A stretch of DNA of 64,000 nt from a virus: the IMG/VR virus record IMGVR_UViG_3300045988_165521; one strand, 5' to 3'. The position numbers and the translations under genes were made by a program. Below are positions 12,167 through 59,420 of the stretch, one piece after another; the first letter of the stretch is position 1, and each line of letters begins with the position of its first letter. The notes under the pieces were generated by a model. The model saw only the letters and a list, made by a program, of their open reading frames with translations, was not told the DNA's origin and ran no database searches.

Positions 12167-12253
12167 GCCCTCGTGATGGAACTGGCAGACATGCCGCTCT
12201 TAGAAAGCGGTCTGAAGTAATAGTAGGGTGCAGGTTCAAATCCTGTCGAGGGC
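12167..12253 (+). tRNA. tRNA-Leu (anticodon TAG)
   Basis: Acceptor GCCCTCG/CGAGGGC, anticodon arm CCGCT-CTTAGAA-AGCGG, long variable arm, discriminator A. Confidence 0.85.
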
Positions 12254-12298
12254 ACTCTAATAGCTTCCTATCTTGGAGGCATTTTCTATTTTATAGAT

Positions 12299-13295: not shown

Positions 13296-13346
13296 ATAAT
13301 CTTGCTCCCGTAGTTCAAGGGATAGAAATTAATTTTTGATTCGAAC

Positions 13347-13378
13347 TTTGTATTTTTAATAAAATTTTTGTATCTTTG
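13347..13378 (+). promoter_or_regulatory. Bacteroidota-type promoter (TTTG-N20-TATCTTTG) for the HNH gene
   Basis: TTTG 13347-13350 and TAnnTTTG box 13371-13378, 28 nt upstream of ATG 13406. Confidence 0.55.
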
Positions 13379-13405
13379 TGTACGAAAATTTTAAATATAA
13401 AATAT

Positions 13406-14017
13406 ATGATAAGTTGAAAATTAGAAAAAGAAAATTTAATTAAGTTCCTTATTGATGAAAAATTAAGTTTTGAAGAAGTAGGTCGTAAGTATAAATGTAG
13501 TGGTAGCAATATTAGAAAAGTAGCACAACGTTTAAATATAATTGTTCCTTCTAGAAGAGCAGTAAATCCATGCGAAACTTTTAGAAGAGGAACTGCTAAA
13601 AAAGGTATCTGTAAGAACTGTGGAAAAGAATTTATATTATATTTATCTCATAGCGGAATTTATTGTAGTAGTAAATGTCAACAAGAGTACCAATCTAAGA
13701 AAAGATATGAATTAATTCTTAATGGAGATCCTTCTATTATGAGAGCTAATTATAACCCTAGATCATCTAAGAAGTATATATTAGAGGAACAGAATAATAA
13801 ATGTGCCATTTGTGGGATGGAACCCAGTTGAAATGGGAAAGAGTTAGTTTTTATTTTAGATCATATTGACGGTCATGCTTCTAATAATAAAAGAGATAAT
13901 TTAAGATGTATATGTCCTAATTGCGATTCTCAGTTGGATACTTACAAATCTAAAAATAAAAACGGAGACAGATATTATTATAGATACTATAAAAGTAGGA
14001 GTGACCAGAATGGATAA
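13406..14017 (+). CDS. HNH homing endonuclease (free-standing; 2 in-frame TGA)
   Basis: A single frame with TGA at 13415 and 13829. LDHIDGHASNN...NLRCICPNCDS motif. It is a paralog of ORF 4721, and its 3' end overlaps tRNA 13995 by 23 nt. Confidence 0.75.
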
Positions 14018-14081
14018 TGGACCAGACTTCTAATCTGGCGAGCTGCAATGCTCATTGCGGGTTCGACTCCCGCCTCCTATA
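13995..14081 (+). tRNA. tRNA with anticodon TCT (nominally Arg) but a type II long-variable-arm architecture
   Basis: Acceptor GTAGGAG/CTCCTAT (G1-U72), anticodon arm CCAGA-CTTCTAA-TCTGG, 18-nt variable region containing hairpin GAGC-TGCAAT-GCTC, T-arm GCGGG-TTCGACT-CCCGC, discriminator A. Confidence 0.7.
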
Positions 14082-14097
14082 CTAAATAAATATAACT

Positions 14098-14370
14098 ATG
14101 ATATTATATAAAGTTCAGAAATACTTTCCTACAGATTTTTCACAAAATTTTATAGAATGTAATATTTGTTCTATAGACAATTTTGAAAGAGAAAGTATAA
14201 AACATGCTATTCGCGATGGTCTTAAACCACATATTTGTTCAGGCATGTGTAGAGAATGTAATAATTTTATAGGTTTGATTGGAGTAGATCTTGAAAAACG
14301 AACAGGAACTGTAATATGTTCTCATAAAAATTATTACAGACTTGAATTTGATGAAAACGAAGGTGCATAA
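14098..14370 (+). CDS. hypothetical Cys-rich protein
   Basis: 90-aa ORF. Confidence 0.45.
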   Translation: MILYKVQKYFPTDFSQNFIECNICSIDNFERESIKHAIRDGLKPHICSGMCRECNNFIGLIGVDLEKRTGTVICSHKNYYRLEFDENEGA

Positions 14371-14380
14371 ATTATTATAT

Positions 14381-15238
14381 ATGAAATTATACGATTCAAC
14401 TGAAAACACATTTCATTGGGAAAAATTAGATTTAATCCCTGAAATAGAAAAACTAAAACGAATACCTCAAAATGAAATATGGCACAAAGAGGGTAATGCT
14501 TTTGTACATACTTGTATGGTTGTACAAAGTGCATTAGATCATATTTCAAATGAAACTATTGATTATTTAGCATCACCTGAAATTAGAGAAATTTTAGTAT
14601 ATGCTGCTTTATTGCATGATGTTGGCAAAGCTTTTACAACAAAGAAAGGAGAAGATGGCCTATATCATGCAAGTAACCATGCAATTAAAAGTGCAGAAAT
14701 TGCAAAAGATTTATTAGTTAAGTTAGAAGTAGATAAACATTTACATACAGCAATTATTTCATTAGTTCGCTGGCATATGCAGCCTATGTATATTCTTGAA
14801 CAGACAAATCCTGAAAAAGCTATACTAAAACTAGCTAATAATCTTAATGAAGTAAATGTAGAACTTTTAATTCTACTAAAACAATGTGATTGTGAAGGTT
14901 CAATCTACGATAAGGATGATCATCGAGACGAAATACTCCAAAAGGTAAGAGAGATTTATTATGATAAAATTACTTACAAACGTGGAGAAACCGTTAAAAT
15001 TACTAAGTTATCAGATAATGATACTTGTAGTTATGTTCCAGGACATCATCCTAATGGAATTAATACTGGATATGAAAAAATAGGTAGGCTAATTGAACCT
15101 ATTACAAAAGGACATAGAGTATATCTAGGACTTGGATTCTCTACATCTCCTGTTGTAGAAATTGTTAGCAAAAATTGTTTTAAAACAAGAAATTCTGTAT
15201 ATGAAATTACAGAAGTTTGTAAAACTACAGAAAAATAA
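14381..15238 (+). CDS. HD-domain phosphohydrolase
   Basis: H...LLHDVGK...H motifs. ATG 14381 was chosen. Confidence 0.6.
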   Translation: MKLYDSTENTFHWEKLDLIPEIEKLKRIPQNEIWHKEGNAFVHTCMVVQSALDHISNETIDYLASPEIREILVYAALLHDVGKAFTTKKGEDGLYHASNHAIKSAEIAKDLLVKLEVDKHLHTAIISLVRWHMQPMYILEQTNPEKAILKLANNLNEVNVELLILLKQCDCEGSIYDKDDHRDEILQKVREIYYDKITYKRGETVKITKLSDNDTCSYVPGHHPNGINTGYEKIGRLIEPITKGHRVYLGLGFSTSPVVEIVSKNCFKTRNSVYEITEVCKTTEK

Positions 15239-28555: not shown

Positions 28556-28592
28556 TTAGTACTAAAAATTTTATTTTTTAAATAAAAATTTG

Positions 28593-28600
28593 TATCTTTG
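28593..28600 (+). promoter_or_regulatory. TAnnTTTG box (TATCTTTG) abutting the helicase ATG
   Basis: The octamer is identical to those at 13371 and 55145. There is no clear -33 TTTG, and its position directly before the ATG makes its role uncertain. Confidence 0.3.
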
Positions 28601-29824
28601 ATGAACAGAACGGAACGTCAAAAGCTTGCTATTAGACGTTGATTAGATAGTAATGGGATAGGCACAATTGTTGCTGCAACTGGATTTGGTAAGACCTATA
28701 TGACTTGCATGTTGATAAAGGCACTATATAATAAAAATCCTAGACTATCTGTATTAATTGGAGTTCCTACAGAGGTTCTAAAAGAACAATGACTTAGAGA
28801 GTTGGCTAAAAACCAACTCTTTTCTGTCTGTAAGGTAGAGATATTTAACACTATTGTTAAAAATCAGTATACAGTTGATTTATTTGTAATTGATGAAATT
28901 CATTGCGCATGTAGTGAAAATAACATCAATATGTTTAAAGCTGTAAAATATCGTTATTTTTTAGGATTAACTGCTACATTTGAGAGATTAGACGGAAAAG
29001 AAGACCGATTATCTGAGTTTACTTATGTTTGTGATCGTATAAATATAAAGGAAGCAGTTGATAATAATTGATTATCTGATTATAGAAATTATAAAGTTTT
29101 AATTGATGTAGACTTATCTCTATATCATGAATGAAATCAGAAATTTCAAAATCTATTTTCTATATTTAATTTTGAATTTAATACAGTAATGAATTGTATT
29201 AGTCGTCCTGGTTTTGCAAGTAAATATGCAAAGAAAACAGGATGAAGTGAATCTCAAGTTAAAGGATTTGCAGCAGCTTGAATGAGAATGTTAAGAAAAC
29301 GTAAGTCTTTTGTAATGTCTCATCCTAAGAAATTTGAAATAGCAGATAAGATATTAGATGCAAGAAGTAATAAAAAAGCAATTACTTTTTCAGCTACTAT
29401 TAAAGATGCAGAATATTTTAAGAAACGAGGATATGTTTTACATAGTAAACAGAAAAAGAAGGAAAATAATACCATTATAGAAAGTTTTAACCAACAAACT
29501 ATAGGTGTATTAAGTACTTCAAAATCTTGCGACGCAGGTGTAGATATAAAAGGGTTAAGTGTTGGAATTATATTAAGTGGAGATAGTTCAAAGACAAGGA
29601 CTACGCAGAGGATTGGAAGAATTTGTCGATTCGAACAAGGTAAACTCGCAGAAATGTTTACACTAGTTATTAAGGGAACTATAGAAGAAACCTGATATAA
29701 TAACTCTAATTCAAACCAACAGTATATAACTATTGATGAATCACAATTAGATATAGTGTTAAGTGGAAAGGAGATTTCTACTAGACCAAAAAAAGGCATA
29801 ATAGATATAGAACATAGATTTTAA
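28601..29824 (+). CDS. SF2 (DEAD/DEAH-like) helicase (7 in-frame TGA)
   Basis: ATGFGKT, DEIH, TATFER and QRIGR motifs. Track ORFs 28802 and 29282 lie in the same frame. Confidence 0.7.
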
Positions 29825-29870: not shown

Positions 29871-30476
29871 ATGGAGTTAGATACGATTCTTAATATTATG
29901 GCTAAATATAAACTAACAGCTGATGAGTTACTGTTAGTTTATTTAACGTTTATTGCTCAAACAGAAAATGGAGATCCTAAAATAAATAGGAACTATTTTC
30001 GAAGGTGATATGAAGGGGGCGGCAAAGAAAGATTACGAGAATTATTCAATTCACTAAAAGAGAAAGGAGTAATCAGGAAAAACTATAACCCAAGTACTTA
30101 TGATCCTGATGAAATTGAATTTAATCAGAATTTTATAAAACAATATTTTAAACTTTCTGGAGAGCTTGGCATGGAATTAGAGGATGCTTATCCAACTAAT
30201 TTATACTTTAATGGGAAAACAGTTAGTTTAAAAAATATTGCAAAGAAATTCTTAAATATGTCAGAATTCTACTTCTGATATTCCTCTACTATTGGACATA
30301 GTATTGAAAAGCATCGTGAAATATTAGAGATACTAGAATGAGCTAAATCTAAAGATCTTGTACAAGTTTCTATGATTGAATTTGTTTCCAGTCAAAAATG
30401 GAAAGAGTTTAAAGAAATGCGAGATAAAGGAATTAATGGCAAAGTTAGTACTGAACAACTTTACGATACTGCTTAA
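29871..30476 (+). CDS. hypothetical protein (3 in-frame TGA)
   Basis: ATG 29871 to TAA 30474. Confidence 0.45.
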
Positions 30477-31600
30477 TGTCTATTGTAGATGAATTATATT
30501 CTGAAATTGACAATGGTAGAGAAGGTAGAAACTTAGGTTTAAAAACTGGATTGCCAAAGTTGGATTGATATACAGGCGGATTCCAAAAAGGAGTTTACAA
30601 ATTAATATTTGGACAAAGTGGTTCAGGTAAAAGTTCATATGTAATATATTCTGATTTATATCGTATATTACGAGATTATCCAGATAGAGATATTGTACAT
30701 GTATATTTTAGTCTGGAAATGAGTTCGAAAGTTTTACTTGCTAAATTGCTTAATCTATATATATATGATACTTATGGAATAGAAATTTCTTATATGACAC
30801 TAATGTCCGTTCGAGAAAAACTATCTGATAAATATTATAAGTATATTCAAGAGTCCAGAGTATGACTAAACTCAATCATACATAAGCTTATTATCTTTGA
30901 TAAACAGCTAAGTTCTAATACTTTCTATGGTAATATGAAAGAACTTCTAAAACAATGAGGTACTTTTCAAGATATTGATGAAGGTAGAAGAAATATTTAT
31001 ATTCCAAGTAATCCCGATAAAATAATAAATGTAATAATTGATCATGCTGGTTTATTAACTCCAGTTGATGGTAGAACTAAAAAACAGGAAATTGATCAAA
31101 CCTCGCAATACTGCGTTTATTTTAGAGAAAAGTGTGGAATATCTATTGACTTTATTATGCAAGAAAATAGAAACACAAGTGATGTAAATAGATTAAAAAT
31201 GGATCTTGCAGAGCCAACCCTTGATGATGTTAAGGATTCTGGTAATGCAGGTAATGACTGTAATATTTGTGTTGCAGTATATAATCCTATAAAACATCAA
31301 CGTAGTACTTATAGAGGATATACTATCATTAATAAAGAATATCCAGAAGAATCTTTAGGTTCTGCTATGCGTGGATTAATATTATTAAAACATCGATTTG
31401 GAGTTGCAAATAAAGTTTTTTGTACTGGCTTTCAAGGTAGTTTAGGACGATTTGAGGAACTTCCTGATCCAGGAAGTATTAATTATGAAGTATATCAATC
31501 TTGAAAAGATGAGAAGTTAGAAGATGAAATAACAAAAGATACAGCTGCAAAAGATGCAGAAGAAAAAGATAGCTTACAAAAACCAATATTCAAATTTTAA
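30476..31600 (+). CDS. DnaB-like replicative helicase (RecA-fold domain; 4 in-frame TGA)
   Basis: Walker A GQSGSGKS and Walker B-like IIDHAG. Track ORF 31157 is in frame. Confidence 0.6.
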
Positions 31601-31602
31601 AT

Positions 31603-33479
31603 ATGGCTATCACATTACCAACAAACAAAATTCCTGCAGAAACTCAGGACCCAAGAAATTTAATTATTTTCTCAAAACCAAAATACGGTGGCTTTCGCCG
31701 TGTATTATAGTAATATAATACTTATGAATGGGCAAAAACGGTGAATTCTAAAAATTTGCCATATATTTACATTCTTAGTTGGAATTTCCAGAATCTTTAT
31801 GTAAATTTGCATTATTAATTTTTAAACTAAAATAATTATTATGCAAATTAAAAGACAAAAATATTCGTATGAATTATTACAAGAGTGTTCAAATTATTTA
31901 AATACACACTCTCTTAAGGAAACAGCTATACACTATAACCTTAGTTATAAAACAATGATAAATGGGTTAATTAGGTTTGGATTTTATACTCCAACTAGAA
32001 AACACAAAATAACTAAGAACAACTGCTATAATCAAAATTTCTTTAGTAAAATTGATTCTCATGATAAAGCATACTTTTTAGGATTTTTAATGGCAGATGG
32101 GTATATTTGTACAACTCCTTACAATAAACAAATAGGAATTGGGATTCAGACAAAAGATAAATATATATTAGAATACTATAAAAATTTAATAGGTAAAAAA
32201 TTAAATATAAAACAATATAAAAATTCTAGTAAACTAACTATTACTAGTACTATAATGTATAGTGATCTAACTAAATTAGGATTTATAGAAAATAAATCTC
32301 ATAATGACTATCATTTTCCAGATATTCCTGATGAATTTAAATCATCTTTCATTTGTGGATATTTTGATGGAGATGGGTGTATAACTATAAAATCTACAGG
32401 ATTTAGTGTATGTTCAATATGTTGTAATTCTAAAATATTCTTAGAAGATTTAAAATCTATATTGGCAAAATATAACATACTATGTAGACCTATCTGTAAA
32501 GAAATAAAAAATAGAAAAAATTCAATATATGTTTTATATTTATCAGGAAGATCCAACCAATTAAAATTTAAGGATTTTATATATAAGAGCGTTAATGTTT
32601 ATCTTGTACGTAAATATGATAAATTTATGAAAATACCGTGCTAACTGTTGTAATAATATATAATGGTAGTGTAACGCGTAGGAAGTGAACCTGTTATACA
32701 GAATATAATCTTCCCAAGAGTGTCCATTATCCTTATGGGATAAAAATGTACGCTGAACTATAAGGAAACTTATAGAAGTAGAGATAAAAAGCTCTACGAT
32801 AACAAAATTGAAAAGCACAGCTTGTGCTAATCTTCCTGGAGCATTATGTATCGACCTTGAAGGGGGTGGATATGATTATATTGATGCTGTAAAGGTAAAA
32901 GCATCTTCTGTTAAAGATTTAAAAGAAATTTGTGCTGCAATTAAGGAAGCTAAATATCCTTATAAGTTTATTGTATTGGATACAATTACTAGACTTGAAG
33001 AAATGGTTAAACCATTAGCTTTAAAGTTATATTTAAATAGTCCTGCAGGACAAAAGTTTACAGGAGATGACGTACTTGATGCACCAATGGGAGCAGGATA
33101 TAGCGCTCTTCGTAAGGCATTAGAGATGGTTATTGATATGGTATCTAAATGTGCACCTAATATTATTCTTATTTGTCATACAAAGGATTCAGCAATCGGT
33201 AATACTGATATGACTGCAAAGACTATTGACTTATTTGGAAAAGCAGGTAGAATTCTTGCTTCAAAGTCAGATGCTATTGGTTATTTAGATAGAGATGAAG
33301 ATTCAAATACTATTCTAAGTTTTAATACAAATGATAAATTTGTAGAATGTGGTGCTAGACCAGAACATTTACGAAATGCAGATGTAGTATTAGGAGAAAT
33401 GAAGGAAGATGGAAATATTGAATTTCATTGGGAAAGAATTTATCCTTCACTTTTAAATCCTGTAGAAGTTAATATATAA
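31603..33479 (+). CDS. Sak4-like/RecA-fold ATPase, split by a group I intron: join(31603..31689,32811..33479)
   Basis: Exon 1 ends ...IIFSKPKYG and exon 2 starts KSTACANL, so the join restores Walker A G-KS/T. Confidence 0.65.
31802..31809 (+). promoter_or_regulatory. TAnnTTTG box (TAAATTTG) upstream of the LAGLIDADG ORF
   Basis: 32 nt upstream of ATG 31841. The -33 element is imperfect. Confidence 0.35.
31841..32644 (+). CDS. LAGLIDADG homing endonuclease (double-motif)
   Basis: YFLGFLMADGYI and FICGYFDGDGCI. Confidence 0.85.
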   Translation: MQIKRQKYSYELLQECSNYLNTHSLKETAIHYNLSYKTMINGLIRFGFYTPTRKHKITKNNCYNQNFFSKIDSHDKAYFLGFLMADGYICTTPYNKQIGIGIQTKDKYILEYYKNLIGKKLNIKQYKNSSKLTITSTIMYSDLTKLGFIENKSHNDYHFPDIPDEFKSSFICGYFDGDGCITIKSTGFSVCSICCNSKIFLEDLKSILAKYNILCRPICKEIKNRKNSIYVLYLSGRSNQLKFKDFIYKSVNVYLVRKYDKFMKIPC

Positions 33480-34623: not shown

Positions 34624-34645
34624 AAAATAATATAGTTAAATTTTA

Positions 34646-35674
34646 ATGGTCTTTACATTAGAACCGATAAATATCACTAAAGAACTTATTTTAAGTAAAG
34701 TTAGTGAAGAAACTTTAATGGAGCATTACTTGGGCATTCCTGTAAAAAAAGGATTGTTCAAGTCTCCATTAAGGCAAGATAGTAAACCTACCTGCGCATT
34801 TTATAGGAATAGGAAAGGAGATTTAATATTTAAAGATTTTCGTGGAGACTTTTATGGAAATTTTATTTCGGTTGTAATGTATAAATTCGATTGTCCTTAT
34901 GGCAAGGCTTTACAAATAATTGCTAATGACTTTGGAATAGTTTCCCGCAAAAATTTAACTATAAATAAACCTCTTATTAAATATACAAATCAAAAGTTTA
35001 ATGATACTACTCAAGCTGTTATTCAAATTGAAGATAAGTCTTGAGAAGATTATGAACTTGAATGGTGATCTAAATATGGTATAGATAAAACTATACTAAA
35101 AAAGTTTCATGTATTTTCATGTAAAAATGTATTTTTAAATGGAAGTATATTTAGTTTACATAAAGATCGGCAATTAGTATTTGGATATTATGGAGGTATT
35201 CGAGAAGATATAGAACGTTGACGTATATATTTTCCTGGAAATATAAAGTATAAGTTTATTTCAAATTGAAAGTCATTTAGATTACAAGGTGCTCATGCAC
35301 TTCCAAAAAATGGAGGAGAATATTTAGTTGTAACGAAATCTTTAAAGGATGTTATGACTCTTTATTCATGTGATAAAATTCCTGCAATAGCTCCAATTTC
35401 TGAAAATTGTTTTTTAACTGAAGCTCAATATACAAAGTTAAAGTCTAAATTCAACAAGATAATTTTATTCTATGATAATGACCTTGCTGGAATTGAAAAC
35501 ATGAATAAAATTCGTAAGAAATTTCCTGACGTACATGTATTATTTATACCTAGACATTATAAAGCTAAGGATATATCAGATTTTTATAAAATGTATGGAA
35601 GGACTAAAACTTTAGAATTAATTGAAAAAGCAAAAAACTACATCTCAGAAAAAGAAAACAGGAGCATACTGTAG
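34646..35674 (+). CDS. DNA primase (Toprim; 4 in-frame TGA)
   Basis: Toprim-like VVTKSLKD...YDNDLAG. Track ORFs 34646 and 35354 lie in the same frame. Confidence 0.6.
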
Positions 35675-36017: not shown

Positions 36018-36216
36018 TTGTAGAGTAGTGTTCACCTCTGCTTCTGGACAAAAAATCATTATTGTATTTACATATGATGAAGAGAAGGATGAATTAAATT
36101 ACGTCCCTCGATTTGAACCTCAAGTTGATGCAAAAACTCAATTAGGTTTGTCTGGAAAGTTATGTGAAATATTTTTAGAAGCATTATCTAGCAAAGATGG
36201 AACAACAAAAGATTAG
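36010..36216 (+). CDS. hypothetical protein
   Basis: 68-aa ORF. Confidence 0.4.
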   Translation: MDSCRVVFTSASGQKIIIVFTYDEEKDELNYVPRFEPQVDAKTQLGLSGKLCEIFLEALSSKDGTTKD

Positions 36217-37769
36217 ATACGATTTGACTCCACAATATGGAATTGAGGAGGTCAACAAAATTCTTACAAGTAAATTAAGTAAGTACCAAGAAAACGAATG
36301 GAAAAGAGGTATGAAGTGGACGGATGTTCTCTCATCTCTTAAAAAACACTTGAATCAGTTCGAACGAGGTATTGATTATACAAACGAGGGACTTTTAGAA
36401 ATGGCTGAAGTAGCTACTAATGCATTGATATTATGTGAATTTTATCATATATATCCTCAAGGAGATGATAGAGTTATGGCCCCTATCGATAAGCCTATTG
36501 TTGGATTAGATCTCGATAATGTAGTATTTGATTTCAATAAAGCTTATGAAGACAAGTTTGGTGTTGCTATGAATCCTTACTGGAATGCAAACTATCAGAT
36601 GTCTGAACATCTACATGAATTAGAATCAGATAAAGAGTTTTGGATTAATATTCCTGTATTACATAGACCCTCTTTTGAAGTAGACTATTATGTAACTGCA
36701 AGAAATATTCCAACTGAATGGATTCAGGAAAGTTTACAGAAGAATGGTTTACCATGTGCTCCTGTAATTACAGTACCTTGGAATGCTAGTAAAGTTGAGG
36801 CAATTAAAAGTAGGGGAATTACGATTATGATTGACGATTAAAAATATTACTTCAACTAATCCAGTCGTCATTAAATCGCATGAATTGCTGGAAACTCCAG
36901 AGATGGACAATCAGCAGCCAAGCACACCTTTAACAAAGTGTGAAGGTTCAACGACTAACTAATGAAACTATGTTAACATTAATTTTAATAATACTATTTA
37001 GTTGTAGAATATATTATAATCCTAGTCCATTGTTTGAAGAGTATAAAAATTATAGAAATCAAAAACATGAATTAGAATTAGTACAATGTGCTAATACAGA
37101 TAAGAAAATTAAGCAGCTATTATCTATATACTTAGATAAGTACCAGGGAAATCGAATATGGATAATACAGTATCATAGAGGGATCAATGACTACATGTGT
37201 GGTTCTATGAGATTTGAACTTTATGATAAACAAACTAAACCTATTAAATATCAGTATACTGATTTTAACCTAAGTTGGTATACTCTACCCGATTATTTAA
37301 GAATCCATGATAGTTTTATAGGAAAACTTGAAGAGGTTGATCCTGTTTTATCTATAAGTAATAGTGCAAAATATATTATTTGTAAATTAATAAGAGATTA
37401 CAATAATGTTTCTATTGGTATATTTGGTATATCTTATTTAGATAAGCTTCCTAACAAATTGTTAGAAACAGATCTGCAACAAGATTATATTGAATTACAA
37501 AAATTAATGTTAGAATAGAATATAATTTAGACACGAGCGTGCGACATCTAGAAATAGATGATGATATAGTCTGAACTACAGATATAATCTAAAAATGAAA
37601 CTGTAGAATTAACAGATAAAGAACTGTTAAGTTAACATAATTGAAATATGATAATTATAAAGAAATTACTAATGCGGGAATATTCTGTTATTTAATGGAT
37701 GCTCCTCATAATCAGTATTATCAAGTAGGACATCGTAGAATTTATGATCTTAAAATACCTATTAAGTAA
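36197..37769 (+). CDS. 5'(3')-deoxyribonucleotidase (HAD/NT5C-like) with an N-terminal extra domain, split by a group I intron: join(36197..36838,37644..37769)
   Basis: DLDNVVFDF HAD motif. Exon 1 ends ...ITIMIDD and exon 2 reads KYDNYKEITNAGIFCYLMDAPHNQ... to TAA 37767. Confidence 0.6.
36839..37643 (+). mobile_element. Group I intron (phage IA2-like core) with an unrecognised ORF
   Basis: P1: exon TGACGAT (36832-36838) pairs with GTCGTCA (36864-36870), with a U-G wobble. It shares TGAATTGCTGGAA, AATCAGCAGCCAAGC, GGTTCAACGACT, ACACGAG and GATATAGTCTGAAC with the introns at 51581 and 55102. It ends ...ATAATTG. Confidence 0.75.
36970..37518 (+). CDS. intron-encoded protein of unknown function (N-terminal hydrophobic helix; no endonuclease motif seen)
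   Basis: ATG 36970; 182 aa: MLTLILIILFSCRIYYNPSPLFEEYKNY... Confidence 0.5.
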   Translation: MLTLILIILFSCRIYYNPSPLFEEYKNYRNQKHELELVQCANTDKKIKQLLSIYLDKYQGNRIWIIQYHRGINDYMCGSMRFELYDKQTKPIKYQYTDFNLSWYTLPDYLRIHDSFIGKLEEVDPVLSISNSAKYIICKLIRDYNNVSIGIFGISYLDKLPNKLLETDLQQDYIELQKLMLE

Positions 37770-39666: not shown

Positions 39667-41910
39667 ATGACTATAGAAGAATGGTTAAATAAAGACGAAC
39701 TTGCAATAACAATTTGAAATAATAAATATAGATTTGAAAATGAATCATTAGACGCGTGGTTTAAACGAGTAAGTAATAATAATCCTGAAGTCGAAAAACT
39801 AATCAGAGAAAAGAAATTTATTTTTGGAGGACGAATTTTAGCAAATAGAGGTTTGAATTCTAAAAATAAAAAAATTACTTATTCAAATTGCTATGTAATT
39901 GCTCCTCCACAAGATAATCTTGAATCTATTTTTGAATGTGGATCTAAGCTAGCTCGTACTTTTAGTTATGGAGGTGGATGTGGAATTGATATTTCAAATC
40001 TCCGTCCAACAGGATCTAAAGTAAACAATGCAGCAAAAACAACATCTGGTGCAGTTAGCTTTATGGATTTTTATTCATATATTACTGGATTGATTGGACA
40101 ATCTGGAAGACGTGGGGCATTAATGATCTCAATATCTTGTGATCATCCAGATCTTGAAGAATTTATTGAACTTAAGTCAAATTTAGATAAAGTTACAAAA
40201 GCTAATATTTCTGTTAGAGTTAGTGATAACTTTATGAAATCTGTTATTAATGCAGAAACTTTGATTCTTAAGTTTATTACAGATACAGGAGAAGTTATAA
40301 CTAAAGAAGTTGAAGCTTATCCTATTTTTAGAAAATTAGCAGAGATGAATTGAGATTATGCAGAGCCTGGAATTTTATTCTGGGATGCTATTAAAAATTG
40401 AAATCTTCTCTCAAATAACCCTGATTTTTCTTTTGCTGGAGTAAATCCATGTGCAGAAGAACCACTTCCTGCAGGCGGTAGTTGTTTATTAGGAAGTATA
40501 AATCTTGCAGAATTTGTTACAGAATGTGAAACATTTGACTTTGTAGGATTTAAAGATACTGTTAAAAAAGCAGTAGTTGCATTAAATGAAGTACTTGATG
40601 AAGGTCTTCCATTACATCCTCTTATTGAGCAAAGAGAATCTGTTAAAAATTGGAGACAGATTGGACTAGGAGTAATGGGATTAGCAGATATGTTTATAAA
40701 ACTAGGTATTAAGTATGGCAGTGAAGAATCTATTAAATGGATTAATATGATTGGAACTGAAATGATCTTTTCAGCTTTGGAAAGTTCTAATGAACTAACA
40801 ATAAGTAAAGGAGCATATCCAATGTTTAATACAAAAGTTGTAGATACACCTTTCTTTCAAGCGCTTAATACTAAGGAAAATAATCTTCGATATCAGGAAT
40901 TAAGAAGTAATGTTCTTTTAAGAGGATTATGTAATTCTCAGTTATTAACTTGTGCTCCTACAGGTAGTATTGCTACTATGTTAGGAATTTCAACAGGTTG
41001 TGAACCTATTTTTGCAACTTCTTATACAAGAAAAACAGAATCTTTAGTTGATAAAGAGAAACTTTATAAAGTATATACTCCAATTATCCAGAATAATTTC
41101 ATTTCAAAAGGAGTTCCTGAAAATCAACTTCCAGAATATGTAGTAACTTCAGAGAACATTCCTTATACAGAGAGAATTCAAGTTCAAGCTGCTTTACAAA
41201 GATATATAGATGCTTCAATTTCCTCAACAATAAACTTACCTGAATCTGCTACAATAGATGATGTTGAAAGAATTTATAGACTTGCATGAGAGTATCATTT
41301 AAAAGGCGTAACTGTTTATAGAGCAGGTTGTAAAAGAGGAGCTATTTTATCTAAGAAACCTATGGGAAGTAAAGAATTAATGAAGCGTCCAGAATCAATT
41401 GATGCTAAATTAATTAGATTTAAAAATGGAACTGAAAACTGGATTGCATTTGTAGGTTTAGTTGATGATAGACCTTATGAAGTATTTACAGGAATTAATA
41501 ATATTGAGGATTTTCCAATTCCCTCAACTATTACCGAAGGTAAAATTATTAAGGTAAAAGATGAATTTGGTAAACGATATGATTTTCAATATGTCGATAA
41601 GTATGGATATACAAATCGATTAGGAGGATTGTCTCGCATCTTTAATCAAGAATACTGGAATTATGCTAAATTAATATCTGCTCTATTAAGAGGAGGAATT
41701 GAATTAGATAAAGTAGTCAAGATTATTGATGGTATGCATTTTGAATCTGATACTTTAAATACCTGGAAGAATGGAGTAAAAAGAGCAATAAAAACATTTA
41801 TTGTTAATGGAACAGAATCTCACGAACTTTGCCCAGATTGTGGTGACCATTTAATATATGAAGGTGGTTGTACTATATGTAAGAGTTGTGGATTTAGTCG
41901 TTGTGTATAA
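39667..41910 (+). CDS. nrdJ: ribonucleotide reductase, class II-like single chain (4 in-frame TGA)
   Basis: Track ORFs 39853, 40675 and 41362 lie in one frame, joined by TGA at 39715, 40351, 40399 and 41287. NPCAEEPLPAGGSCLLGSINL active-site loop, GVTVYR, and a C-terminal CPDC...CTICKSC zinc ribbon. Confidence 0.8.
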
Positions 41911-47828: not shown

Positions 47829-48009
47829 GAATTTTGATGTAGAGGTAGAACCTATGACTAAATATGAATTTTATGATAGAATTAAGAAAATTCAGTTACA
47901 ACATCCTGAAAATAAATGAGTCAAAGGTTATTATATTAACTGGAATGGATATGAATTCTGGTTAATGGAAGAAAATTTTAATAAATTATATGAAATAATA
48001 GAATGTTAA
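47812..48009 (+). CDS. hypothetical small protein (1 in-frame TGA)
   Basis: ATG 47812 to TAA 48007. Confidence 0.35.
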
Positions 48010-49952
48010 TCCGAGGTAAAACTGTATATGTTTATGATATTGAGATATTTCCAAATGTATTTCACTGTACAGTAAAAAATTCTGAAACAGGAGAATATTT
48101 ATATTTTGAAATTTCTGAAAGACGAAATGATCTTCTAAAACTAGTTGATTTCTTTTGAACTATTCAAGAAGAACCTCAAGATGGCATTTGAGCAAAAAAC
48201 TATACTACAGATCTACAATTCTTTACAGATAAAATATTTTGTGGATATAATAATTTACATTATGATAATCCTATAATTAATTATATTATTGATTATCATA
48301 AGAAATTGTCAACACTTGATTATCTTAGTGTTTGCAAATCTTTATATAATCTTAGTAATGAAATTATTAGATCTACAGATAGTAACTTTACTTCTTGGAG
48401 TAAATGGAAATATAAAATTTATTTTGAAACCTTGGATTTGCTTACAATGTTATATTCTCAAAAATTGCGAGTGGGATTAAAAGAAATGCAAGTAACTATG
48501 CAATTTCATAATGTTCAAGAATATGAAGGAGATTTCCAAACCTGACTTCCTGCATCTGAAATTCCTAATATGATAAAATATAATATTAACGATGTTGATT
48601 CTACTGAGGAATTATTAAATCGGTGTAAAAAGGATATAGAATTACGATTAGCAATCGAAGATGAATATGGAGTAAAAGTATTAAATAAAGATGGTGTAAA
48701 CATTGGAATGAAGATTATTACTCAAAAATATCTTGAGAAAACAGGTCAAACTTGAAATCAAATCAAGGATTTACGTTCTCCTTGTGATATGATTGATCTA
48801 AGTAAAGTTATTCTTCCAATTGTTAAGTTTGATACACCGATTCTCCAAGAAGTTCTAAAAGATATGAAAAGTCAAACTGTTTCACCTGGTAGAAAAGGTT
48901 ATGAAAAACATTTTATACTAGATGGATTAGAATATTGCGTGGGCGTGGGAGGGATTCATACAGTAAATAAACCTGAAGAAGTTATACCTTCTAATGATCA
49001 GATACTCAGTGACATAGATGTAGCTTCTCTATATCCGAGTATGATAATTGAACATGAATTTTATCCTCAACATCTTGGTAGAGAATTCCTTGAGGTTTAT
49101 TCCCAAATTAAAAATGAGCGTATTGAGGCTAAACATAATGGAAATAAAATAAAAAATGAAACATTAAAACTTGCTCTTAACGGATTAAGTGGAAATTTGC
49201 AAAATGAACACAACTTTTGTTATAGTCCGTTTACCGTTATGCAAATTAGAATTAACGGACAATTATTATTATTAATGTTAGCCGAACGATTAATTGCAAT
49301 AGGTTGTAAAATTGTTCAAGCTAACACTGATGGCTTATTTGTTCTGCGCCCAAAAAATAAAGAGCAGGAGTTTCAAGATGTTTGTAAAGATTGGGAAAAG
49401 TTAACTAAACTTAATCTTGAAGAAGATCGTTTTGAAGCTATGTTCCAATTTGCAATTAATGATTATTTAGCAATTAAAGAAGGATATTCTAAAACTAAAA
49501 ATCCTGATTTGTTAAAAACTAAAGGAATGTTTATTGATAAAGTTAAACTTGGTAAAGGTATGGATGCTACTATTATACCTGAAGCTATTAACAAATGTTT
49601 AGCTGACGGAATTCCTGTTGAAGAGACAATTCGAGGATGTAAAGACATTAATAAGTTTATTACTTATCAGAAAGTAAGTAAAGATTATTCTGTTGAATAT
49701 GATGGTAAAATTATTCAAAGAATTAATCGTTATTATATTTCTACTGATGGTCCTTGGTTATATAAGTGTAAAATTGATAGTAATGGTCGTCGATATAATT
49801 ATATCAAGTTGTTAACTGATTCTGGAGTAACAATTATGAATACTATTGACGATAAGACAAAGATTCCAAATAATATTAATTATCCATTTTATATTGCGTC
49901 TGCTCAAAAGATAGTATATTTATTTAAACATAAGCAATTGAGCTTATTCTAA
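48003..49952 (+). CDS. DNA polymerase with 3'-5' exonuclease domain (4 in-frame TGA)
   Basis: Exo motifs YDIE, GYNNLHYDNPI, YNINDVDST. Polymerase motifs DVASLYPS, KLALNGLSGN, QANTDGLF. TGA at 48156, 48189, 48543 and 48753 join four track ORFs in one frame. Confidence 0.8.
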
Positions 49953-50004: not shown

Positions 50005-50035
50005 TAACATCAAATTACATTAAAAATAATATACT

Positions 50036-50824
50036 ATGAAAAATAACAAATGATGCGTTTATAAACATACAAGTCCTTCCAAAGGAGTTTATATTGGAAT
50101 AACTAAACAAAATCCAGTAATTAGATGAAGTAACGGTTCTGGATATAAAAGAAATCCATATTTTTATAAAGCTATACAAAAGTATGGATGGGATAATTTC
50201 AAACATGAAATACTTTTCTCTAACTTAACACAAGAAGAGGCAGAAAGATATGAAAAAAACTTAATATCTGAGTATAGAAATGGAGGTAAATGCTATAATA
50301 TTCTAGATGGAGGGTTAGCTGCAGTAGTAGATACTTCTAAAAAAGTCTACCAATACACTTTAGAAGGTAAGTTTTTAAAAGAATGAACTTCAGCTACGGA
50401 AGCAGCAAAATTTTACAAAGTCACACAAAGTACTATTACAAATTGTTGTAATCCAAATTACAGAACTAAAACTGCTTGTGGATTTATTTTTAGTTATAAT
50501 AAAACTTCTAAAAAAGATCCTATTATCTCTGTTTCTACAAAAGCAGTAAATCAATATGATTTACATATGAATTTAATAAAAAAATGGCCATCTAGAAGAA
50601 AAGTCCAAAAAAACTTCCCAAATTGAAGAATTGGGGCATGTTTAAATGGTAAGGTTAAATCTTGTAACGGTTATATATTTAAATATACTGATGACGCTAT
50701 ATCAGAAAAACCTGTACATAAAGGAAAATTAGTTACTATTAATGGAATTACTTATCAATCATTAAAGCATGCTTCTACTGCTTTAGGAATTACTGTATAT
50801 AAAATAAAAAAATTGTTATGTTAA
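50036..50824 (+). CDS. GIY-YIG homing endonuclease (free-standing; 4 in-frame TGA)
   Basis: CVYKHTSPSKGVYIGIT...R...GY...NYE-like N-terminal module plus repeated DNA-binding modules (VYQYTLEGKFLKEW; VNQYDLHMNLIKKW). Confidence 0.7.
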
Positions 50825-51078
50825 AATTATTGAAATTCGGAGCATCTTATTGTGCTCCATGTAGAGCTATGGCTCCTATTTTAGAAGAATTAAAATCTAA
50901 AATTGATATACAAGATATAGACGTAGACGAAGCAGATCCTGTAGTACTTACTAATTATAAGATTAGAAATATTCCTGTATTAGTCTTATTAAAAGATGAT
51001 AAAGAAGTTTGAAGACATGTTGGAAGTATTTCAAAATCTGACTTAGAAAAAGAAATTGAAAAATATGAAGCTAATTAA
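50818..51078 (+). CDS. thioredoxin (1 in-frame TGA)
   Basis: FGASYCAPCRAMAP CxxC site, and IRNIPVLVLLKD. Confidence 0.7.
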
Positions 51079-53168
51079 ACCTTATTTTGAAATTATAGAA
51101 CAGGAATCTGGACTTGAAGGTATTTATAAACAAATTGAACTCGCAGGAAGAACTTGTTATAAATCAGAAGATAAAATAACTCCTGATTCTGCTAAAGGAT
51201 TTGTCGATAGAATGATCAAATCTGGTCATGGCGCTATGCTAGAACATGGTACTGTATATTTAAAAGCTGATTCTGAATTTTATAATCCTTTTATTCAACC
51301 AGAAGACGGAGAGGAAGAAGAATACAATGATTTATTTAAATATGGCGATAATAACTATTCGGTTTGTCATGAACAAAGAAGTGTAAATGGAAATACGATT
51401 TATGTCACCACTAATCTTAGAGTATTAGTAGAAAATAACTGGCTTGATGATCTAAAATATCTCTGTGAACCTACTGAATATCATGAAAAACGAATTACAG
51501 TAAAGTTTATTTGTGATCGTGGTGTATCTCATGAATTTGTAAGACATAGAGTATTCTCTTTTGCTCAGGAATCTACCCGTCAAGAAACAATGGCGGCTTA
51601 AATAAGTAATTATTTATGCATAACCCAGTGAATTGCTGGAAGGCTAAAATTTATTAAACTTTTCTACAAGTTTGGATATATCCAAATTTATCATTAACTT
51701 TGTTACAGTAATAAATATAAAATTTTTAAGCTATGAGAAAAATGGATATTAACGTAGGTGATAAATTTGGAGATTGGACTGTAACAAATATAAATGTTCT
51801 ATCAAAGAATAAAAGTAGATATGTATTATGTCAGTGTAAATGTGGCTATATGGGAGAAGTTAATGCCTCAGCCCTTAGAACTGGAAGGAGTTCTAGCTGT
51901 AAATCCTGTGCCAAAAGGAAAAATACCACAATTTTAAAAGTAGGAAGTAAATACAAACATTGGACTATACTAGAAGGTCCAATATACAAAAATTCTACTG
52001 CTTATTACAAAGTTAGATGTGATTGTGGGACTGAAACCTATAAGTTACCTATAGAACTTCTTTATAAAGATAGGGACTTTCAATGTGAAAAATGTGCTCA
52101 TAAAGAGAATATGGAAAATATTAGAAAGAAAAATGGAGAAGTTGGAGAACTTACTAAAACTGAATATACTAGGCTTAAGAGGTCTGCTGAAAAGAGAGCT
52201 TATGTTTTTGAGGTTTCTATAGAATACTTATGGAATCTATTTCAAGAACAAAAACAAATTTGTGCTATTACTGGGGATTATATCCCTAATATAGAAGAAG
52301 CTTCTCTTGATAGAATAGACTCCTCTAAAGGGTATATTGAAGGTAATGTTCAATGGGTAACTTATCAAGCTAACTTAAGTAAACATGTTATGACAATGGA
52401 ACAATTATACGAGTTTTGTAGAAAAGTATTAAATCATGCTAATCAGCAGCCAAGCCAGAGGTTAACAACTCTGGAAGGTTCAGAGACTAATTGATGAAAC
52501 TATGTCTAAAATAATTTTTGAATGTCCTGTATTGCAGGAATTTTGGGACAAATATATAGCCAATAGAGATTGGAATAAAACTTGTAAAGAGATTAGTACA
52601 ATTCTTGATGGCTTAGAGTATTTTAGTGTAGAATATAATTCAAACACGAGTGCTGGACATCCTTTATAGGATGATGATATAGTCCGATACTCTGAGGAAA
52701 CTCAGAGAGTTCAAGATAAAGAGCTTGAACATTAACTAATTGTACTGTAATTATAGCAAAGATAAGTTTGGAAGTGAGCTTACTTTTATTATTCCTTATT
52801 GGACAAATATTCCAGAAGGACAAAGTTATTGGCATGATGGCATTGGGTATCGCGTAGGAGCAGATATTCAAAATAAAGATTTTGGATATATTGAGAAGTC
52901 TCCAAACTATTTTAATTTCTTATCTTCTTTAGAAGAATCAGAAAAATGTTATCTTAGACTATTAAATGAAGGATGGGTTCCTCAACAAGCTCGTTCTATA
53001 CTTCCAAATTCTCTCAAAACAGAGTTAGTAATGACTGGAACTCTTGAACAATGGAAAGGATTCTTTAAGTTACGTAGTCCATTATATGGAGCAATAGGAG
53101 CTCATCCTCAAGCAGCAGAACTAGCAGATAAACTGTATATACAGTTTAAGGAGAAAAATTATATTTAA
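51065..53168 (+). CDS. thyX: flavin-dependent thymidylate synthase, split by a group I intron: join(51065..51580,52743..53168)
   Basis: Exon 1 ends ...RHRVFSFAQESTR and exon 2 starts YCNYSK..., so the join restores the ThyX RHR-x7-8-S-x-R-Y signature. Confidence 0.85.
51581..52742 (+). mobile_element. Group I intron (same family as 36839 and 55102) with an HNH gene
   Basis: Shared core motifs at 51629, 52441, 52644 and 52676. The 5' exon ends in T and the intron ends ...CTAATTG. P1 is only about 4 bp by eye (weaker). Confidence 0.7.
51733..52494 (+). CDS. HNH-type homing endonuclease (intron-encoded)
   Basis: Zn-finger CxxC pairs, then SLDRIDSSKGYIEGNVQWVTYQANLSK. The 3' end of the ORF runs into the intron core element AATCAGCAGCCAAGC. 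Confidence 0.7.
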   Translation: MRKMDINVGDKFGDWTVTNINVLSKNKSRYVLCQCKCGYMGEVNASALRTGRSSSCKSCAKRKNTTILKVGSKYKHWTILEGPIYKNSTAYYKVRCDCGTETYKLPIELLYKDRDFQCEKCAHKENMENIRKKNGEVGELTKTEYTRLKRSAEKRAYVFEVSIEYLWNLFQEQKQICAITGDYIPNIEEASLDRIDSSKGYIEGNVQWVTYQANLSKHVMTMEQLYEFCRKVLNHANQQPSQRLTTLEGSETN

Positions 53169-54606: not shown

Positions 54607-56931
54607 ATGAAGAAAAATATAAATACAATTAATATTGAAGAATTAAAAACATTAGCTAGTTATATTATTGATAATAATAAACGATTATATAATGAGCATA
54701 AAAAGACTACTGCAATTGAAGTAGTAGGTGAATCTGGTTTAGGTAAAACTTCTGCTATCATTCAGTTAGCTCAAGAAAGAGGAATGGACTGTATTAAACT
54801 TAATCTTTCTCAGTTAGAGGAATTAGGTGATCTTATTGGTTTTCCAATTAAAGAGTATTATGTTTGTACAGAGCGTCCTAGACTTGATGATGATGGAATG
54901 CCTGTTGTAGAAAATGAAATAGTAATTAAGGATGAGGAATGTCTTTGGGTATCTGCAGATGTACTAGATTCTTATATTGCAGAGGGTTATAGAATTAAAG
55001 ATAATATATCTCGAATGGGATACGCTCTTCCTGCATGGGTTCCTACTTCTCGAAATGAAAATGGCACAATTTTAATTCTTGATGACTTTAATCGTGCGGA
55101 TTAAAAAATATATTGTAAAGTTTTGTTTCCCTGAATAAATTTAGTATCTTTGATATAAATTTAAAAATATGGAAAAACTAACATTACAAAAGATTAAAGT
55201 TTATAAAAAAGTTTGTGGAATTTATAAAATAAAGATCCACGATAAAGAATATATAGGAAGTTCAAAAAATATTCAGCATAGATTAAGACAACATCTAATT
55301 ACTTTAAAACAAAATAAACATCACAATCATACTATGCAAAATTTGTATAACAAGTATGGCATTGATAATATTTATTTTGAAGTTATAGAAACTTGTCTTG
55401 AGGAAAATAGAATTAGTAGAGAAAAATACTATATAAATAGTATTAAACCTTATATAAATCATATTTTAGACCCTGAGAATATCATTAGAGATAAAGAATA
55501 TAAACATAGAATAAGTATCTCTAAAAAGAAATATTATGAGACACATTCTCCAGTTAATATAAAAATGGTATATCAGTATAGTTTAGAAGGAAAATATCTT
55601 CAAAGTTATAAATCGATAACAGATGCAGCTATATCTACTAACCAAGATACTACTGCAATATGTAGTGTATGTAATAATCGTAGTTATACTGCTGGTGGAT
55701 ATAGATGATCATTTGAATTAAAAGAAAATCTTTCTAAACTAAAAAAGAAATATAAGAAAATACCTGTTATTCAATATTCACTTGATAATGTTTTTATTAA
55801 AGAGTGAGATTCTAAAACAGATGCTGAAAAAGAACTAAAAATTTGTAATATATCTCGCGCTATAAGAAAAAATCTTACTGCAGGAGGATATAAATGAAAG
55901 TATAAAATCTAGAGGTCCGCATAAAATAGCGTGAATTGCTGGAAAAGCCTGAGGAGGTCAATCAGCAGCTAAGCTAATTAGTAATAATTAGAAAGTTCAA
56001 CGACTAGTACATGGAGTCCAGGAATGGATGGTAAAGTACCACGAGTGCGCTACACTATTTATATAGTGAAGATATAGTCTGAACTACGTTATAACCTAAG
56101 AAAAGACGTAGAAGTATAGGATAAAGAGCCTATACGATAACAATAATGCCTAGATTTATACAAGCTACCATGGAGCTTATTGACCGAGGAGAATATATTT
56201 CATGGAGTCTTCCTCCTAATTGTACAATTATATTAACATCAAATCCTGATAATGGTGATTATAATGTTAATTCTATGGATAATGCCCAAAAGACTCGATA
56301 TATTAGTTTCGAATTAGGTTTTGATAAAGATGTATGGGCTCGTTGGGCTGAGAAAGAGGGTATTGATGGTCGTTTTATCAATTTCGTATTATCTTATCCT
56401 GAGATTATGAACAAGGAGGGAGGAGTACAAAAAGTTAATCCTCGAAGTTTAGTAACCTTTGCAAATACTATTTCAGGTTTTAAAGATTGGTCAGATACTA
56501 ATACTTTAGGTTTAATTCTTAATATTGCTCAAGGTTGTTTTACTTCTGAAGAAAACGTTATTGGAAACTTATTTACTACATTTATTGCTAATAAGTTAGA
56601 TAAATTAATGGACCCAGATACAATGTTAAATAAAGATTGGGATTATGTTAAAGGAGAATTAGCAAAACAAGTATATGATGGTACTAACTATCGTGCAGAT
56701 ATTGCTGCAGTTTTAACAACTCGATTCTGTAATTTTGTAAATCTATATTTTGATACAAAAGGTAGTAAAACAGAAGTAGCTGTTGATAGAATTCTTAAAA
56801 TTATTGAGCATGATAAGATGTTATTTTCTGAGGATTTGATTTTCAGTTTAATTAAAACTCTCCAAAAAAATCATCCTACAAGATGTAATAAATTATTATT
56901 GAATCCTAAAGTAGCTAGAAAGTTAATATAA
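54607..56931 (+). CDS. AAA+ ATPase (MoxR-like), split by a group I intron: join(54607..55101,56149..56931)
   Basis: Walker A GESGLGKTS. Exon 1 ends ...ILILDDFNRAD and exon 2 starts PRFIQATMELIDRGEY, a continuous Walker B / sensor region. Confidence 0.7.
55122..55152 (+). promoter_or_regulatory. Bacteroidota-type promoter (TTTG-N19-TATCTTTG) inside the intron, for the GIY-YIG ORF
   Basis: TTTG 55122-55125 and TATCTTTG 55145-55152, 17 nt upstream of ATG 55169. Confidence 0.55.
55169..55912 (+). CDS. GIY-YIG homing endonuclease (intron-encoded; 3 in-frame TGA)
   Basis: GIYKIKIHDKEYIGSSKNIQHRLRQH...N...YG motif. The frame continues through TGA to TAG 55910. Confidence 0.75.
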
Positions 56932-59340: not shown

Positions 59341-59420
59341 AAATCCCCTTACTTGCTTAATTGCGAGTAAGGGGATTTCTTTTGCCTCTATCTGCTTATG
59401 CGGATAGAGGTTATTTTTTT
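59341..59420. terminator. Two back-to-back hairpins at the convergence of + and - strand transcription
   Basis: AAATCCCCTTACT-(12 nt)-AGTAAGGGGATTT, then CCTCTATCTGC-TTAT-GCGGATAGAGG plus TTATTTTTTT. T/A-runs lie on both sides. Confidence 0.7.

Follow-up and report, generated by a model that had tools for sequence, protein, structure and literature searches.

Three related group I introns with different cargo open reading frames in a recoded phage genome

A 64,000-nucleotide (nt) stretch of viral DNA (IMG/VR record IMGVR_UViG_3300045988_165521), referred to here as the window, contains three genes, encoding a nucleotidase, ThyX and an AAA ATPase, each of which is interrupted by an insertion that carries open reading frames (ORFs). 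The locus raises the question of what these insertions are, whether they share one origin, and what their different ORFs do. A sequence-only reading of the window by a model had taken the insertions for group I introns of one lineage that spread within the genome and was invaded independently by different ORFs. The best explanation as a whole, with a probability of about 0.9, is that the insertions are paralogous phage group I introns of the IA type, which splice, move between genes and recombine at conserved core blocks, and one of which harbours a passenger gene in a cassette. The three introns are designated I1 (nucleotidase), I2 (thyX) and I3 (AAA ATPase), and related contigs and loci are cited by L numbers.

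Short sequence blocks recur in the same order in the three insertions. The P block, TGAATTGCTGGAA, is located at 36881, 51629 and 55932 in I1, I2 and I3 respectively. The Q block, AATCAGCAGCYAAGC, is located at 36909, 52441 and 55960, and the R block, GTTCARMGACTA, at 36946, 52478 and 55995. CACGAG follows at 37532, 52645 and 56040, and the S block, GATATAGTCYGA, at 37563, 52676 and 56071. All of these motifs were found where the sequence-only reading had placed them, except that GGTTCA in I3 is without the leading G. The 13-mer TGAATTGCTGGAA, with at most one mismatch, occurs three times in the window, as against a mean of 0.19 in shuffled sequence, and three occurrences were reached in 0 of 100 shuffles. 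Similarly, the ordered set of P, Q, R and S with at most two mismatches is confined to three loci, at 36.9, 51.6-52.7 and 55.9-56.1 kb. These recurring blocks correspond to P, Q, R and S, the classical conserved elements of the group I intron core, in which P and Q pair to form P4, and R and S pair to form P7.

The boundaries of the insertions are equally consistent. The last base of the 5' exon is T for I1, I2 and I3. The final three bases are TTG in I1 and I2 and ATG in I3, and the terminal G at the 3' splice site is also present in a fourth intron of the window. All three joins are in frame and restore the conserved motifs that had been read from the letters, namely MIDD/KYDN, QESTR/YCNY and NRAD/PRFIQ (a slash marks the splice junction). 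The spliced products, each uninterrupted, are a 255-amino acid (aa) dGTP_diPhyd_N/nucleotidase fusion, a 313-aa ThyX and a 425-aa AAA ATPase. Matches to single protein families extend across two of the joins: phrog_37590 spans residues 4-250 of the spliced nucleotidase, and phrog_1297 spans residues 34-350 of the spliced AAA ATPase. The C-terminal region of the nucleotidase has weak matches to deoxyribonucleotidase and polynucleotide-kinase families in PHROG. The exons, introns and their parts are as follows.

36197..36838, forward strand: 5' exon of the nucleotidase gene (Pfam PF18909, dGTP_diPhyd_N), ending in ...GACGAT
36839..37643, forward strand: intron I1, 805 nt, group I without P2, cargo in the P7.1/P7.2 region (empty alleles, covariation)
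36864..36869, forward strand: internal guide GUCGUC of I1, predicted to pair with exon GACGAU, with U.G at the splice site
36970..37518, forward strand: cargo ORF of I1, 182 aa, after R, between the P7 5' strand and P3'
37532..37574, forward strand: 3' core of I1, with CACGAG, P3' TGCGA at 37540-37544, the P8 hairpin at 37545-37560 and the S element/P7' at 37563-37574
37644..37769, forward strand: 3' exon of the nucleotidase gene; spliced 255-aa product 100% identical to intron-less alleles
51065..51580, forward strand: 5' exon of thyX (Pfam Thy1), ending in ...QESTR (CCCGT)
51581..52742, forward strand: intron I2, 1162 nt, group I, P2 present; L5 holds the HNH gene and the P7.1/P7.2 cassette a 55-codon ORF (orthologue matching the Rfam group I model RF00028, covariation)
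51591..51596, forward strand: internal guide UGGCGG of I2, predicted to pair with CCGU/CA
51659..52433, forward strand: HNH insertion in L5 of I2, 775 nt, with a TATTAAA repeat at its flanks (by comparison with the HNH-less intron of L001)
52502..52669, forward strand: 55-codon ORF in the I2 cassette, start context in common with the I1 ORF, translation putative
52743..53168, forward strand: 3' exon of thyX, starting with YCNY
54607..55101, forward strand: 5' exon of the AAA ATPase gene, ending in ...NRAD (GCGGAT)
55102..56148, forward strand: intron I3, 1047 nt, GIY-YIG gene in L1, core contiguous, no P2 (RF00028, 65.7 bits)
55169..55912, forward strand: GIY-YIG/NUMOD1 homing endonuclease gene, 247 aa (Pfam PF01541, PF07453), downstream of the 5' splice site and ahead of the guide
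55915..55921, forward strand: internal guide GUCCGCA of I3, predicted to pair with exon UGCGGAU
56149..56931, forward strand: 3' exon of the AAA ATPase gene, starting with PRFIQ

The guide pairings were read from the sequence, as was a possible P10, in which UCUAG just 5' of the I3 guide could pair with CUAGA of the 3' exon. In each intron the exon-terminal U would pair with the guide G in P1, the ribozyme core from P3 to P9.1 would fold around the loops that hold the ORFs, and guanosine-initiated splicing would join the exons so that MIDD-KYDN, QESTR-YCNY and NRAD-PRFIQ are restored. In two other contigs, L123 and L170, new insertion sites are matched by new guides. The P7.1/P7.2 region consists in I3 of a 33-nt segment in which a hairpin can be drawn by eye, and in I1 and I2 of a stem that closes the cassette.

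The helices were evaluated in a structural alignment of eight introns from which the ORFs had been cut out by hand. RNAalifold, run unguided, recovered P3, P4, P5, P6, P8, P9 and P9.1. Once the P7 pseudoknot was included, 95.1% of cells were paired (51 pairs, eight introns), as compared with 26-40% when the partners were slid. Changes on both sides were present in 27 of the 51 helix pairs, and the observed values were reached by 0 of 500 shuffles. P4 was invariant, P7 was paired in all eight sequences with one swap of A-U to G-C, and P3 occurred in four forms (TCGCA/TGCGA, CCAG/CTGG, TAGCG/CGCTA and CTCCG/CGGAG; here the slash separates the two strands). P3 and P8 of I1 covary. The blocks shared by the three introns can be threaded into group I helices.

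Covariance-model searches used RF00028, for which the curated cut-off is 50 bits. The I3 core (55880-56100), searched alone, scored 65.7 bits (E 9.3e-17). Introns at the I2 site of thyX in other phages scored 74.6 bits (L073, without the HNH gene) and 83.3 bits (L085, in whose L5 loop no ORF was detected), and the intron of L001, which is related to I2 and located at a neighbouring site, scored 71.8 bits. The Rfam alignments of I3 and of the I1 allele of L164 place an insertion exactly between the P7 5' strand and P3'. The resemblance to the T4 td/nrdB-type core, which the sequence-only reading had pointed out, was borne out by the P, Q, R and S elements, the RF00028 matches, the covariation and P7.1/P7.2. 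A T4-like core of subgroup IA type is supported, with the placement, made by the position of P7.1/P7.2, extending to IA as a whole and not separating IA2 from other IA introns.

Related loci were collected with the spliced ATPase (25 loci) and the spliced nucleotidase (21 loci); nearly all belong to one phage species, on contigs of up to 174 kb. In 16 loci the nucleotidase gene is intron-less, with the DNA joined exactly between 36838 and 37644 and a predicted product at 96-100% identity. These alleles are 99.8% identical to the window up to 36838, and some of the empty sites have flanks identical to those of the window. Of the 20 strain loci spanning this site, 16 are empty and four contain I1, as does the window. 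In L167, I1 has an extra insertion of ~870 nt near its 5' end, where LAGLIDADG_2 ORFs occur in the related contig L169. Every locus spanning the ATPase site carries I3 together with the GIY-YIG gene, and no intron-less ATPase allele was found among the 25 loci. Thus, among near-identical strains, presence of I1 and of the thyX introns varies and I3 shows no polymorphism.

The thyX gene is the most variable of the three. Ten alleles are uninterrupted and divergent (~54% aa identity), six contain the intron with the HNH gene, and four contain an intron with a homologue of the I1 ORF. The identities of the thyX exons between strains form a mosaic. The intron-less ThyX of L125 and cr106_1 aligns free of gaps over ESTR/YCNY, so that intron-less alleles, which the sequence-only reading had proposed to look for, exist for both the nucleotidase and thyX. 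Across phages, three insertion sites were found in thyX within 45 nt of each other, at SH/EF, VRH/RV and STR/YC; the related loci concerned include L140:1282-1430, L123:1783-2583 and L001:1978-2382. In L140, twin introns surround a 33-nt micro-exon encoding RVFSFAQESTR. In L073, the nearest of the more distant relatives, an extra insertion of ~1 kb in thyX near codon 33 (L073:4090-5153), absent from the window, is probably another intron. A free-standing GIY-YIG endonuclease gene with in-frame TGA codons (50030-50824) is located just 5' of thyX in the window, and several strains also have GIY-YIG-like sequence upstream of thyX. This gene could drive the exchange of thyX alleles.

The ORFs occupy different places in the three introns, as had been described from the letters: after R in I1, between P and Q in I2, and before the guide in I3. 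A nuclease of a homing family is encoded in I2 and I3, none is encoded in I1 of the window, and LAGLIDADG_2 ORFs are found in some I1 variants. The HNH ORF of I2 (51733-52494) starts between P and Q and continues through Q, P6 and R, extending to 52509 if TGA encodes tryptophan (Trp). It ends in TGA TGA; with TGA read as Trp, it continues to a TAA at 52507-52509 and overlaps the start of the 55-codon ORF. The HNH protein matches phrog_3322, phrog_374 and other endonuclease families in PHROG, and orthologous HNH genes were found in L041 (68%) and L087 (60%). The frame of the GIY-YIG gene of I3 is open only with TGA as Trp; its three in-frame TGA codons are conserved in the strains checked. Homing endonucleases of three types, HNH (I2, in L5), GIY-YIG (I3, in L1) and LAGLIDADG (some I1 variants), would drive mobility.

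The site between P7 and P3' behaves as a cassette with alternative ORFs. It is bounded on the left by the R element with GAAACUAUG, and on the right by UAGAAUAUAAU...CACGAG. In I1, I2 and most relatives the ATG within GAAACTATG serves as start of the cassette ORF, whose end is near TAGAATATAAT. The contents differ, comprising a 182-aa, 55-aa or 48-aa product or, in Kehishuvirus, another ORF. In the I1 alleles of L164-L166, a hydrophobic 48-codon ORF replaces the 182-aa ORF. The sequence-only reading had noticed that the start region of the 55-codon ORF mirrors that of the I1 ORF; ACTAAYTRATGAAACTATG is indeed present in both introns, at 36954 in I1 and 52486 in I2, and the likeness is part of the wider cassette pattern with the same ATG. 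The P7-to-P3' cassette is exchanged between introns, the conserved core blocks would serve as recombination points, and whole cores move between genes.

Movement between genes is directly visible for the I1 type only. A polA intron (L170:2934-3732) and a nucleotidase intron (L167:4044-4843), found in separate samples, share 97% identity across the 800 nt between P3 and the 3' end; their ORFs are identical, and only the P1/P2 guide region differs. In addition, thyX introns of other strains contain the I1 ORF and the core sequence on either side of it (666 nt) at 91-93.5% identity. Close homologues of the I1 cargo protein were found only within introns of nucleotidase, thyX and polA genes.

No entry in Pfam, PHROGs, NCBIfam or PDB sequences matched the 182-aa cargo protein of I1. 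No nuclease domain was detected in it, and tblastn searches with two members of its family found no match in GenBank phages. The dN/dS (nonsynonymous to synonymous) ratio of 0.22-0.41, with dS up to 0.8, marks the ORF as a selected gene. An exhaustive HMMER profile search recovered 82 representatives of the family, most of them free-standing and ~225-250 aa long, with an extra N-terminal segment of ~35 residues, one membrane helix and an alpha/beta domain. An AlphaFold2 model built from the 13 close sequences was unusable, with a predicted local distance difference test score (pLDDT) of 45.7; the 51-sequence alignment from the exhaustive search was used instead and gave a model with a pLDDT of 94.9, which has an N-terminal hydrophobic helix, a long helix and a GAF-like domain. 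Foldseek searches of the PDB with this model matched the periplasmic domain of the T4 holin T (6PSK, 6PXE and 6PX4) at E 4e-5 to 8e-4; for 6PSK_T the values were E 4.1e-5 and template modelling (TM) scores of 0.56/0.68. Matches in BFVD to phage proteins of similar length included those named GAF protein, Holin, Class III holin and T holin lysis mediator.

The layout of the modelled protein resembles that of T4 holin T, a class III holin in which one membrane helix at the N-terminus precedes a globular alpha/beta domain; normalised to target length, the TM-scores are 0.65-0.72. For phage proteins named 'Holin' or 'Class III holin', the match covers their whole length, and free-standing homologues adjoin endolysin genes. 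One free-standing relative overlaps a Peptidase_M15_3 gene, and another adjoins a DUF5675 gene. One contig contains both an I1 intron and a full-length paralogue, which is surrounded by small membrane proteins and separated by ~1 kb from a Peptidase_M15_3 gene; the intron copy itself is not beside an endolysin-type gene. Full-length relatives fit the class III layout of ~220 aa, whereas the intron copy is N-terminally shortened. The I1 cargo would thus be a membrane-anchored protein of GAF fold and a diverged, N-terminally shortened paralogue of an endolysin-adjacent gene of related phages, and fold and context suggest a holin-like or antiholin-like passenger rather than a mobility enzyme of the intron.

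Several points weigh against the combined reading. Rfam found no group I intron in the whole window at the gathering threshold, nor in 30-58 kb at E<=10, and the I1 allele of L164, with the 48-codon ORF in place of the 182-aa ORF, scored 44.4 bits (E 3.4e-10), which is under the cut-off. The scores for I1 and I2 come from relatives, namely the L164 allele for I1 and, for I2, the same-site introns of L073 and L085 and the neighbouring-site intron of L001. The check by group I covariance models, which had been suggested along with the sequence-only reading, succeeded for the I3 core and the thyX orthologues and came back blank for the whole window; the failed scans are artefacts of filters and insertions, not evidence of absence. 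The cores of I1, I2 and I3 are only 57-66% identical to each other, so that a common origin inside this genome is not demonstrated. As to the cargo, the predicted holin function draws on the fold, the architecture and the neighbours of distant homologues. The best PDB fold matches are ordinary GAF domains, with those of cyanobacteriochromes (E 2.6e-6) scoring slightly better than holin T. The family has no holin match in Pfam, PHROG or NCBIfam and no sequence similarity to T4 holin T, which its profile misses among PDB sequences. In addition, the intron copy starts inside the membrane helix, without the N-terminal 35 residues, and its helix is shorter than that of full-length relatives.

Splicing itself is predicted from DNA, which leaves room for an alternative with no RNA splicing, in which the genes really are in pieces or are broken by inteins or simple insertions. 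This alternative is nevertheless very improbable: the insertions hold a complete ribozyme core with covariation and are located inside conserved motifs, exact empty alleles exist, and I1 and I3 open with a stop codon, with a stop in I2 after seven codons. The kinship of the introns is less settled. Separate arrivals from the pools of other phages, with the shared blocks reflecting conservation throughout the family, are a serious possibility, albeit at somewhat less than even odds. The Q...R pattern alone has matches in more than 120 viral contigs, in which 70 distinct compact cores carry the same P, Q, R and S elements. The I3 core is also at least as close to introns outside the window as to its neighbours, being 70-75% identical to those of viral contigs L089, L066 and L057, compared with 57-62% to I1 and I2. 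However, all four introns of the window have in common a P9.1 loop (a GATAAARAR hairpin found nowhere else in the window) and a 3' tail, and cores and cassettes of the I1 type have demonstrably moved among nucleotidase, thyX and polA genes within this phage group. Separate arrival and spread within the genome are, moreover, compatible with each other. We conclude that the introns form one family that recombines at conserved core blocks; an origin within this genome is not proven. The proposal that a single lineage spread within the genome is supported in part: the movement of the I1 type between genes has stood, and the descent of all three from one resident intron is only a possibility, given the low core identities and the equally close introns outside.

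The ORFs admit other interpretations as well. It is unlikely that the 182-aa ORF encodes a novel type of homing endonuclease, or a maturase, acting on behalf of the intron, even though the ORF has been found only inside introns of the I1 lineage, in three host genes, travels with the intron core, and belongs to a wider family in which His, Arg, His, Glu and Asp residues vary hardly or not at all. A GAF-like fold with a membrane helix is unlike known nuclease folds, and the family consists mostly of free-standing genes of ~230 aa, of which two examined adjoin Peptidase_M15_3 and one DUF5675. The minority occurrence of I1, the persistence of identical empty sites and the additional LAGLIDADG gene in some I1 variants also argue against such a role. 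For the short cassette ORFs (55 and 48 codons), it is plausible, though not the favoured view, that they are not genes, the frames being accidental within an extended P7.1/P7.2 RNA structure. Neither ORF matches a family in Pfam, PHROG or NCBIfam, and the region is a place of structural helices in IA introns, with a predicted closing stem CUAUG/CAUAG. The 55-codon ORF is 100% identical in aa sequence in six strains and 96% identical in the more distant L073; since it differs from the L073 copy at two bases only, selection is not measurable. On the other hand, both frames are open in introns of different genes and phages, all cassette ORFs have the same start ATG, and the two copies of the 48-codon ORF keep the frame over about a dozen base differences, with no stop or frameshift and with mostly conservative aa changes. 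The 48-codon ORF (MIKYIFNYIWYLIQLPIYFILMCCVFTIPLAAM...) is very hydrophobic and occurs in the cassettes of introns in two genes, at L164:3249-3430 and in the thyX intron of L085.

Beyond the passenger reading of I1, a tentative proposal is that the introns are vehicles for fitness passengers, the swappable cassette having moved a holin-like protein among nucleotidase, thyX and polA and perhaps altering the timing of lysis. If the I1 cargo is expressed, self-splicing introns of abundant human-gut phages would move functional genes beyond their own mobility enzymes. A literature search found no intron-encoded holin, and the cassette and the non-nuclease cargo appear to be new. In public metagenomes, the empty sites identical to occupied ones, the clustered thyX sites, the twin introns and the polA intron are direct evidence that introns are gained, lost and moved from gene to gene. 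In practical terms, standard Rfam scans combined with ORF calling under genetic code 11 overlook these introns and their cargo.

Phage group I introns of subgroup IA2 include those of T4 td, nrdB and sunY and of orf142 of Staphylococcus phage Twort. The introns of the window have in common with them the P, Q, R and S consensus, P7.1/P7.2 between P7 and P3', U.G at the 5' splice site and the terminal G, as well as host genes in nucleotide metabolism or replication and endonuclease genes in peripheral loops. In contrast to T4, where the ORFs are in P6a or P9.1, those of the window are in L1, L5 and the P7.1/P7.2 region. I1 and I3 also differ from the T4 and Twort introns in having no P2, and one cargo of the window is not a nuclease.

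High intron density is known from other gut phages. Zeta crAss-like phages are described as recoded, with a genome size of 145-192 kb and as many as 14 introns each (Yutin et al. 2021, PMC7886860), and the same size, recoding and intron features are described for Lera phage (PMC12386605). Zeta and Delta crAss-like phages resemble the window and its relatives in reading TGA as Trp, in a genome of ~145-192 kb (related contigs here reach 174 kb), in a forward block with genes for tRNAs and nucleic-acid metabolism plus a reverse block (containing, in the window, one long TGA-recoded ORF), and in many introns and homing endonucleases that vary between close genomes. Introns were found there via endonuclease domains, and the two papers do not appear to describe ribozyme cores, ORF positions or non-nuclease cargo. 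Jug (jumbo gut) phages have ~18 group I introns per genome, with splicing confirmed by metatranscriptome reads, and are, like the window, gut Bacteroides-type phages of high group I intron density (PMC12880540). They differ in belonging to another phage group, with genomes of 360-402 kb, introns mostly of ~206 nt and endonuclease genes that mostly stand alone (PMC12880540). Since the intron density of Zeta crAss-like and Jug phages has already been described, the three introns themselves are ordinary new members.

A fourth intron is present upstream of the nucleotidase gene.

31690..32810, forward strand: fourth group I intron, within an AAA_24 ATPase gene, core unlike that of I1-I3; P1 ACGGU/...GCCGU, terminal G

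This intron splits the P-loop of the AAA_24 ATPase gene, and its ORF (31841-32644) matches LAGLIDADG_3. Once spliced, the ATPase has an AAA_24 match that spans the join and covers residues 18-204 (E 8.6e-24). The assignment of this intron to group I is supported. The sequence-only reading had counted five group I introns in 64 kb, one of them in a tRNA gene. Four were verified, including that at 31690-32810; an Rfam search of positions 1-15000 at E<=0.01 revealed no intron in a tRNA gene. Tools for finding tRNAs disagreed in this area, a UCC tRNA at 4627-4698 being found by Rfam only, and a tRNA-Tyr (9227-9310) and a tRNA-Ser (10733-10822) by ARAGORN only.

The window looks like part of a Zeta-group crAss-like gut phage of ~170 kb, a putative membership based on gene content, code and thyX. 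The thyX DNA is 70-80% identical to Crassvirales thyX, and a megablast search with the 36-44 kb region found no match in GenBank phages. The window reads TGA as Trp (genetic code 4). Genes for a helicase (28586-29824), a DnaB-like protein (30449-31600), a primase (34640-35674), a ribonucleotide reductase (39667-41910) and a DNA polymerase (47985-49952), all on the forward strand, are intact only with this code, as is a 1480-aa ORF on the reverse strand (59419-63858) that has 13 TGA codons. A restriction of recoding to late genes, with the GIY-YIG gene as an exception, was rejected, as the forward-strand helicase, primase, ribonucleotide reductase and DNA polymerase genes also require TGA as Trp. 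None of the 13 tRNAs of the window has a UCA anticodon, and the tRNA at 4627-4698 was rejected as a suppressor on account of its UCC (Gly) anticodon. The exons of the nucleotidase, ThyX and ATPase genes use TGG only, the GIY-YIG gene of I3 uses TGA only (three codons), and the helicase gene also uses TGA only. This uneven use of Trp codons may reflect different origins or different timing of expression.

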